64,000 bases of DNA from an uncultured Pseudomonadota bacterium (GCA_964534555.1 CAZHRK010000003.1:1-64000), one strand, 5' to 3'; positions 10,366 to 10,666 are shown, counted from the first letter of the stretch. The notes: a model not told the origin generated them from the sequence alone. Translations and numbers: made by a program.

Positions 10366-10666
10366 TTACATACACATCAGCCTAAATAACTCTGCAAGCG
10401 CACGTTCTCGTGCAGCTGCTGCAGCTTCTTCGGCGGTTGGTATTCTTCTTGCTTCAACTAGTGGGGGGAGTGCTAATCGGCAAAGAGGGCACTTATTCAG
10501 GTGTCTTCTGGCCTGCGTAATACATGGTGCATGAAAACTATGTCTGCACGGAAGCGTTGTTTCTTCCTGTTCTGCCTCTATAGCGTCAAGACAGATAGGG
10601 ACATTCTCTTACAGCCTCAGCAGCAGCGGTTGTTTCTGGCAAGCTGCTTGCGGCATGCACGTTCAT
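10366..10666 (-). pseudogene. frameshifted small RING-H2 zinc-finger gene
   Basis: Minus-strand ATG at 10666 gives MNVHAASSLPETTAAAEAVREC-P then runs into a stop after a single extra T (plus-strand A in acagataggg, ~10596). Removing it restores CPICLDAIEAEQEETTLPCRHSFHAPCITQARRHLNKCPLCRLAL... to the stop at 10366, a canonical C3H2C3 RING-H2. Not in the ORF track because neither frame reaches 60 aa. Confidence 0.6.

Follow-up and report, generated by a model that had tools for sequence, protein, structure and literature searches.

The stretch of DNA analysed here, 64,000 nucleotides (nt) from an uncultured Pseudomonadota bacterium (GCA_964534555.1 CAZHRK010000003.1:1-64000) and referred to below as the window, carries on its minus strand, between 10726 and 10366, a gene for a small RING-H2 protein whose reading frame is interrupted by a single extra base. 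The same base is present in a second, diverged lineage, and the substitutions separating the two indicate that the frameshift predates their split and that purifying selection has since acted on both halves of the gene, each in its own frame. On balance the gene seems to be live, with its full-length protein depending on +1 slippage of the ribosome at a CCC_U site, a slippage that may be programmed or merely tolerated and selected. The stricter proposition, a genuine programmed +1 frameshift at CCC_UAU, where a sense codon occupies the ribosome's A site, in a chromosomal Dependentiae gene, seems possible rather than probable. Placement of the organism in Candidatus Dependentiae/Babeliales comes from its GyrA (54111-56687), which shares 75-81% identity with proteins that bear the names Candidatus Dependentiae, Babeliales or TM6.

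Two reading frames and one RING-H2 domain

From an ATG at 10726-10724 one minus-strand frame (frame A) reads MLQQLTLLSVCFTLTHSILSMNVHAASSLPETTAAAEAVRECPYLS*, with an internal ATG at 10666. It holds a hydrophobic, signal-peptide-like N-terminus, a linker and the first RING cysteine (TGT 10603-10601), and it ends ..RECPYLS*, so that the product of an unshifted ribosome is a peptide of 46 amino acids (aa). The +1 frame (frame B) reads ..ENVPICLDAIEAEQEETTLPCRHSFHAPCITQARRHLNKCPLCRLALPP...LMCM*, over a longer translated stretch ..ENVPICLDAIEAEQEETTLPCRHSFHAPCITQARRHLNKCPLCRLALPPLVEARRIPTAEEAAAAARERALAELFRLMCM, and stops at TAA 10368-10366; in the window it has no ATG, GTG or TTG between an upstream TAA (10611-10609) and its last three codons. 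The zinc ligands are divided between the frames, the first Cys being found in frame A only and the other seven in frame B only. When one base of CCCT (10600-10597) is skipped, ..AVREC-P is joined to ICLD.. and a 119-aa protein with all eight RING-H2 ligands results.

These frames bear out the original prediction, itself made from the sequence alone, of a RING-H2 gene broken by one extra base. That prediction took the surplus base to be a T; one base is indeed extra, but it could equally be one C of the CCC. It also opened the gene at ATG 10666 for a product of ~99 aa. Removal of one base does restore the open reading frame (ORF), but the start is likelier to be ATG 10726, which gives 119 aa and the hydrophobic N-terminus, because an AAGGA Shine-Dalgarno sequence, conserved in the relative described below, precedes it and ATG 10666 has none.

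Membership of the RING-H2 class was judged by the spacing C-x2-C-x(9-39)-C-x(1-3)-H-x(2-3)-H-x2-C-x(4-48)-C-x2-C within one polypeptide. Only the A/B fusion displays it, as C-x2-C-x14-C-x-H-x2-H-x2-C-x10-C-x2-C with C42, C45, C60, H62, H65, C68, C79 and C82 as the ligands, frame B alone having seven of the eight. Against the Pfam family zf-RING_2 (PF13639; gathering cut-off 27.3 bits) the repaired protein scores 48.6 bits (E=9.8e-13) over model positions 2-44 of 44, in agreement with the RING-H2 assignment first made for it; frame B alone scores 45 bits, in a match that begins at model position 4. The closest PDB sequences are the RING-H2 domains of Arkadia, RNF165, Praja-1 and EL5 (E=5e-9 to 7e-7), the top match being the Arkadia W-to-A mutant 5lg0. 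An AlphaFold2 model has a pLDDT (predicted local distance difference test score) of ~95 over residues 41-119, and its top Foldseek matches are all RING E3 domains, RNF165 superposing with a root-mean-square deviation of 0.5 Å over 46 residues and a template modelling (TM) score of 0.91. By sequence and by its predicted cross-brace fold the joined product is a canonical RING-H2 domain.

The extra base in two lineages

Among 5.8 billion proteins searched with the repaired one there was a single relative, P0001, a gene-caller prediction of 96 aa from a 74-kb Logan contig (L001, run SRR13076594, seen in 2 samples). P0001 is frame B of L001 read from a fortuitous ATG (MPQAAC...), and the DNA of L001 carries exactly GAATGTCCCTATCTGTCTTGAC, with the same extra base as the window. 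For the window strain itself a Logan de novo contig (L013, run SRR14271335, seen in 4 runs), which carries that strain's own alleles, equals the window over 801/801 nt, extra base included. Because the base recurs both in the same strain and in a second lineage, sequencing or assembly error, one of the two explanations given originally, is excluded. An artefact in an intact gene might have been suspected from the position of the base within a 3-nt homopolymer, but the base is found again both on the de novo contig seen in 4 runs and in the second lineage, which comes from another run, and the artefact is effectively refuted.

Other strains had been proposed as a place to look for the intact allele; the only relative, L001, has the same frameshift. 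Nor was an intact donor copy for gene conversion found, P0001 being the sole orthologue among the 5.8 billion proteins and 1.84 billion cluster representatives. Neither the RING alignment nor the neighbouring MFS protein had a relative in scans of the GTDB species genomes. The scan of JGI metagenomes gave no orthologue; the RING-H2 genes there were distant, at 44% and 33% identity, and their contigs had a giant-virus or eukaryotic appearance. In viral contigs the DNA of the shift site had 0 matches, whether the extra base was included or removed. Neither the 46-aa frame A peptide nor the paralog discussed below is present in the protein collection, and an exact look-up of the MFS protein of the window was likewise empty.

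Across 20 kb the window and L001 are 89-90% identical in nucleotide sequence (~10% diverged), with synonymous divergences (dS) of 0.58 in the MFS gene and 0.43 in the zeta-toxin-like gene that flank the RING gene. The RING gene itself differs by 28 substitutions in 361 nt (7.8%) and by no indels. This total is far below the synonymous divergence (pS) of the flanking genes, 0.33-0.40, and 28 or fewer differences at the neighbours' synonymous rate would have P<1e-15. By comparison, an unconstrained spacer at 12116-12264 has 38-45% identity, with gaps.

Read in the composite A|B frame the changes are 14 synonymous and 14 non-synonymous, for a ratio of non-synonymous to synonymous divergence (pN/pS, by Nei-Gojobori) of 0.31. 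The upstream half, in frame A, has 4 synonymous changes and 6 conservative non-synonymous ones (pN/pS 0.46), and the downstream half, in frame B, has 10 and 8 (pN/pS 0.25), with 11 of these 18 at third codon positions (P=0.002). Alternative frames contain stops and give ratios of 1.5-2.8 or undefined ones. When these 28 changes were placed at random, at least 14 were synonymous in 0.12% of trials (P=0.0012), a new stop arose in 48% and a zinc ligand was altered in 77%. Neither occurred in the gene, where all 8 ligands were kept and zero new stops appeared between the lineages. The composite omega of 0.31 resembles that of neighbouring accessory genes (0.10-0.35).

Three adjacent changes in codons 38-40, GCT GTA AGA to GCC GTG CGA, would turn L-stop-E into P-C-E if read in frame B, the stop becoming Cys. 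As these three changes, the nearest to the shift on its 5' side, are all synonymous in frame A, this frame appears to be read right up to the junction. Around the shift 24 nt are invariant, flanked by clusters of substitutions, the nearest 6 nt upstream and 19 nt downstream. That the lesion spread late from one lineage to the other is unlikely, because the transferred patch would need to be shorter than 25 nt.

Taken together the comparison indicates a frameshift older than the split of the lineages and purifying selection on both halves since. A very recent, decaying pseudogene, the other explanation offered at first, fits poorly with the age of the frameshift, with the ratios in the two halves and with a divergence far below the synonymous one. 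Further disabling mutations, which were looked for as marks of decay, were likewise absent between the lineages (no indels, stops or ligand losses). A conserved frameshift, whether used or tolerated, was not weighed in the original prediction.

Possible routes to the joined protein

Nowhere between the two TGT codons except at CCC_U would a +1 shift leave C-P-I-C intact, and this site is identical in the window, L013 and L001. CCC is the rarest Pro codon of the window (2.7 per 1000; 51 of 745 Pro codons). In the proposed mechanism most ribosomes starting at ATG 10726 would read CCC UAU CUG UCU and halt at UGA, releasing the 46-aa peptide. In a fraction of them the peptidyl-tRNAPro on the rare CCC (10600-10598) would slip by +1 and re-pair with CCU, after which AUC UGU... 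would be decoded to give ..RECPICLD.. and the full 119-aa RING-H2 protein. Such a slip might have an efficiency of only a few percent, and the tryptic peptide expected across the junction is ECPICLDAIEAEQEETTLPCR.

The slippery nature of CC[C/U]-[C/U] sequences is established, as is shifting on CCC-N by the tRNAPro(UGG) isoacceptor (PMC4519876). Frameshifting by +1 at CCC_UGA or CCC_UAA occurs in phages of Listeria, Lactobacillus and Bacillus, in some antizymes and in pheL, and both a Listeria phage and E. coli cheA have a +1 site in which a limiting sense codon replaces the stop (PMC3082878). The present site is like these CCC_N sites (tail and capsid genes of Listeria phages, E. coli pheL, antizymes with CCC_UGA, phages Q54 and SPP1 with CCC_UAA; PMC3082878) in having CCC in the P site followed by U and a zero-frame ORF that ends soon afterwards, here within 3 codons. 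It is unlike them in that UAU, a common sense codon, stands in the A site, no stimulator was identified and the gene is of a cellular effector type, neither a structural gene of a phage nor a leader peptide. With prfB, which encodes RF2, it shares the setting of a bacterial chromosomal gene and the requirement for +1 re-pairing of the P-site tRNA to make the full-length product, but the CUU_UGA, the Shine-Dalgarno-like stimulator 3 nt upstream and the autoregulatory stop of prfB have no equivalents here. Assignment to the class of programmed +1 frameshifts is thus partly established: the slippery codon, selection in both frames and conservation of the site are present, and the slow A-site codon is absent.

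Several observations weigh against slippage at CCC_U, or at least against its being efficient. The window's ordinary genes contain 12 in-frame CCC_T sites, two of them CCC_TAT, and so by itself the site cannot be very shifty. At efficient known +1 sites the A-site codon is either a stop or rare, whereas UAU is common here (19.1 per 1000, against 11.4 for UAC) and does not qualify as a slow codon. In E. coli CCC_UGA alone gives ~2% or less (PMC3082878). A Shine-Dalgarno-like element 3 nt upstream, as in prfB, is absent, GAGG standing 14 nt upstream. The 8-bp hairpin that follows the site may be a candidate stimulator, but a doubtful one: its z-scores (-1.6 and -0.5) are not significant and its position is unsuited to a +1 shift; its stems are invariant, with all three nearby substitutions in the loop, but the stems also encode ICLD and EAEQ. 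As to the evolutionary evidence, the selection signal of the upstream half alone is not significant (P=0.19), the gene has other invariant blocks at least as long as the 24-nt one, and, as only two lineages have the gene, the shift site is known to be conserved from one comparison. An Rfam search of the locus found neither a recoding element nor any other RNA family. The other CCC_T junctions between a zero and a +1 frame in the window are chance overlaps within or antisense to intact genes, with no sign of genome-wide use.

Some of these points would also be expected of a non-functional pseudogene, in which an independent frameshift at the same position or a chance coding-like pattern accounts for the comparison and the full-length protein is not made. 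Frameshifted pseudogenes are common in host-dependent bacteria and genuine +1 recoding is very rare in bacterial chromosomal genes. CCC_U comes without an accepted stimulatory signal, the Trp by which most RING-H2 domains contact the ubiquitin-conjugating enzyme (E2) is Ala in both lineages, and the upstream half by itself gives the non-significant result just cited. The gene does resemble the frameshifted pseudogenes of host-restricted bacteria, in that a single-base insertion breaks the ORF and annotation pipelines skip it, but it differs from them in its purifying selection in both frames, its conserved expression signals and its lack of secondary lesions. A dead gene would have to carry an identical lesion in two lineages, with any shared patch under 25 nt long, and no intact donor copy for gene conversion was found. 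It would also have to retain a pN/pS of 0.31 without the stops and ligand losses that 48% and 77% of neutral simulations produce, and without indels, and to diverge by 7.8% next to synonymous sites at 33-40% and an unconstrained spacer at 12116-12264 of 38-45% identity, with promoter-like site, Shine-Dalgarno sequence and terminator all intact and conserved. A pseudogene is in our view unlikely.

Two further possibilities leave the gene live but do without ribosomal slippage at CCC_U. The same 119-aa product could arise by another correction, such as a quadruplet-reading tRNAPro with an 8-nt anticodon loop (SufB2-like), slippage of RNA polymerase or other recoding. The evolutionary evidence would be the same, the missing canonical stimulators of programmed ribosomal frameshifting leave room for it, and +1-frameshifting variants of tRNAPro are known. 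The C3 run is far too short for transcriptional slippage, though, and with a quadruplet-reading tRNA the frame would be shifted as well at the 12 in-frame CCC_T sites of ordinary genes; the tRNA genes within the window are those for tRNA-Leu and tRNA-Lys only. A correction of this type seems quite improbable, and we would put no higher the idea of two products, the 46-aa frame A peptide and an independently started RING fragment from frame B. The gene caller did predict a 96-aa frame B ORF in L001, where an ATG is available (P0001), and frame B alone has its 45 bits against zf-RING_2. In the window, however, TAA 10611-10609 closes frame B, which offers no ATG, GTG or TTG before the RING, so that a non-canonical codon such as AUC would have to serve, and the frame B N-terminus of L001 arises from changes that are synonymous in frame A. 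The fragment would have 7 of the 8 ligands or an abnormal C-x5-C pair, with a Pfam match only from model position 4, and retention of the frame A TGT (Cys42) exactly 2 codons before Cys45 would go unexplained. Ribosomal +1 slippage at CCC_U would then be the route by which the frames are joined, in preference to other recoding.

The predicted protein and its surroundings

Table 1. Features of the RING-H2 locus and its paralog in the window
Feature	Position	Strand	Remarks
Promoter-like site TTGACA-17-TAGAAT	11029..11057	-	11/12 consensus matches; just downstream of the zeta-toxin-like gene
Leader, ~300 nt, with a 45-codon short ORF (10986-10849)	10727..11028	-	~88-94% identical to L001, single 5-nt indel
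Shine-Dalgarno AAGGA	10733..10737	-	6-nt spacer to ATG 10726; conserved in L001
Frame A segment, 43 codons	10598..10726	-	Ends with Pro codon CCC; only open frame in both lineages
RING-H2 domain, Cys42 to Cys82 of the repaired protein	10480..10603	-	Spans the frameshift; Pfam, PDB matches, AlphaFold, Foldseek
Proposed +1 shift site CCC_U	10597..10600	-	P-site CCC would re-pair with CCU; next codon AUC = Ile
Frame B segment, 76 codons + TAA	10366..10596	-	7 remaining zinc ligands and C-terminal helix
Hairpin, 8 bp, 9-nt loop	10571..10595	-	Starts 2 nt after CCC; contains the frame A UGA
Frame A stop TGA	10586..10588	-	Three codons past the shift site; conserved in L001
Predicted C-terminal amphipathic helix, residues 98-118	10372..10434	-	AlphaFold helix, pLDDT 97-98
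Predicted intrinsic terminator, 12-bp GC-rich hairpin (10355-10327) then TTTTTAT	10317..10355	-	Identical in L001
Intact paralogous RING-H2 gene	43479..43871	-	28% identical to the repaired protein

The residues by which a RING domain contacts its E2 are partly kept, namely Ile44 after the first Cys, Pro80 after the seventh ligand and the linchpin Arg83 (CPLCR). Where the paralog and the family consensus carry Trp, both lineages have Ala71. The corresponding Arkadia mutant W972A keeps its fold (PMC7765195), and therefore the Trp to Ala change does not exclude E3 activity. Set against the n-h-c regions and AxA-like cleavage site of a Sec signal peptide, the N-terminus, MLQQLTLLSVCFTLTHSILSMNVHA|AS, shows a hydrophobic core, with V-H-A occupying -3 to -1, and lacks a basic n-region; that of L001 has K3. 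AlphaFold gives it a pLDDT of 56-59 over residues 1-30. The repaired protein would carry a Sec-type signal and be exported, it would have E3 ligase activity, and, once secreted, it probably mimics the E3 ubiquitin ligases of the host.

Its eight-ligand C3H2C3 spacing is the same as in Arkadia/RNF111, RNF165 (Ark2C), RNF38, Praja-1 and EL5. In contrast to these eukaryotic RING-H2 E3s it is bacterial, only 119 aa long, provided with a signal-peptide-like N-terminus, devoid of a substrate-binding domain and in need of a +1 change of frame, and the E2-contact Trp (W972 of Arkadia) is replaced. Among bacterial RING/U-box effector E3 ligases SneRING of Simkania negevensis, NleG and LubX likewise have a eukaryote-like E3 domain, and the shared setting is that of an obligate intracellular bacterium of protists or animals. 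SneRING has been shown by experiment to be an active classical RING ligase that works with UbcH5b (PMC12591485) and may be regarded as the closest functional analogue among bacteria. The present protein has no detectable orthology to SneRING, comes from a different phylum (Dependentiae), is presumed to be exported by Sec, is much smaller and is frameshifted.

The window holds a second member of the RING family, as was originally proposed, in the form of an intact gene at 43479-43871, for which ATG 43829 is a likelier start than the listed TTG 43871. It encodes a hydrophobic N-terminus, a linker, the RING-H2 domain and a hydrophobic C-terminal tail, and is followed by a terminator hairpin of its own. 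Since the paralog is contiguous in one frame, an N-terminus joined to a RING is the architecture of the family. The same architecture is found in an unrelated 159-aa protein from the cluster-representative library (P0338), in which a single frame encodes a clear signal peptide followed by a linker, then a RING-H2 (NCSICLD..TLPCSHSFH..CPLCR) and hydrophobic segments at the C-terminus. Of the distant metagenomic RING-H2 genes, one on a giant-virus/eukaryote-looking contig (L002 5995-6261) encodes an 88-aa protein (ERECPICLE...) with a C-terminal transmembrane segment and stands beside a 1338-aa helicase-like ORF; its RING is the 44% identical one, which brings the bacterial RING close to the eukaryote or virus type of RING-H2.

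Signals for expression surround the gene (Table 1). The promoter-like site is predicted by its match to the consensus, and both of its hexamers are identical in L001. The leader, which runs from there to the RING start codon, is more conserved than the synonymous sites of neighbouring genes and has one compensatory pair, C-G to U-A, in a stem predicted for it. The stretch may act as a small RNA or as a regulatory leader with a structure of its own. The short ORF in the leader was rejected as a coding gene, its substitutions being mostly non-synonymous. At the other end the gene is indeed convergent with the MFS transporter gene. The hairpin at 10355-10327 had been described as a terminator shared by the two genes; its T-run lies on the RING-gene strand only, and it appears to be the RING gene's terminator and not clearly shared with the MFS gene.

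The RING gene stands in a run of effector-like genes with hydrophobic N-termini, including a zeta-toxin-like gene, a 217-aa ORF and a DUF2608 gene among others. With a 596-aa ORF and further genes they form a block at ~10366-17046 between the MFS gene and Bax1-I/MutS2-like genes, and several of the block's genes begin with a signal-peptide-like sequence. In more distant Dependentiae contigs (L005-L009; MFS protein 56-59% identical) the RING/zeta/DUF2608 block is absent beside the MFS gene, so that they are uninformative on the shift. The block has the look of an effector island specific to the lineage. Signal peptides are found on 44% of coding sequences in Chromulinavorax, a Dependentiae species in culture, and its putative effectors are thought to be exported by Sec (PMC6561590).

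Divergence from L001 along 397-19976 of the window is a mosaic, with dS of 0.13-0.15 for 397-3405 and of 0.3-0.6 for most genes; an ORF at 6097-7050 has dS 1.43 and a protein only 52% identical to its L001 counterpart. This suggests recombination and at least one hypervariable gene. Separately, the mutually independent Logan contigs L011, L012 and L013 of the window strain all end at ~12197-12224, inside a poorly conserved spacer (12000-12369) and by the short inverted repeat CCTAAAC..GTTTAGG, which may mark a polymorphic or repeated junction.

The RING-H2 domain is an ordinary one, and bacterial mimics of E3 ligases are already known. What is unusual is a +1 frameshift under selection in a RING gene, at CCC_U followed by a sense codon, in a phylum with hardly any experimental data. 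Gene callers either miss such a gene altogether, as in the genome of the window, or call a truncated frame B ORF, as with P0001, and so a candidate for host interaction stays hidden. To our knowledge a need for a +1 shift is extremely rare among bacterial chromosomal genes other than prfB. A CCC_U with a sense codon in the A site, kept under selection, would be a new case of recoding, and if the frameshift at the site is indeed programmed, the gene would be one of the very few cellular bacterial genes besides prfB with programmed +1 frameshifting. It would then be a recoding-controlled effector, whose output would be set by the fidelity of tRNAPro decoding (isoacceptor supply, m1G37/TrmD, EF-P). 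Classical bacterial RING E3s have been characterised only recently (SneRING, 2025), and the small family of minimal RING-H2 proteins with Sec-type N-termini in the Dependentiae points to mimicry of the ubiquitin system in these parasites of protists.

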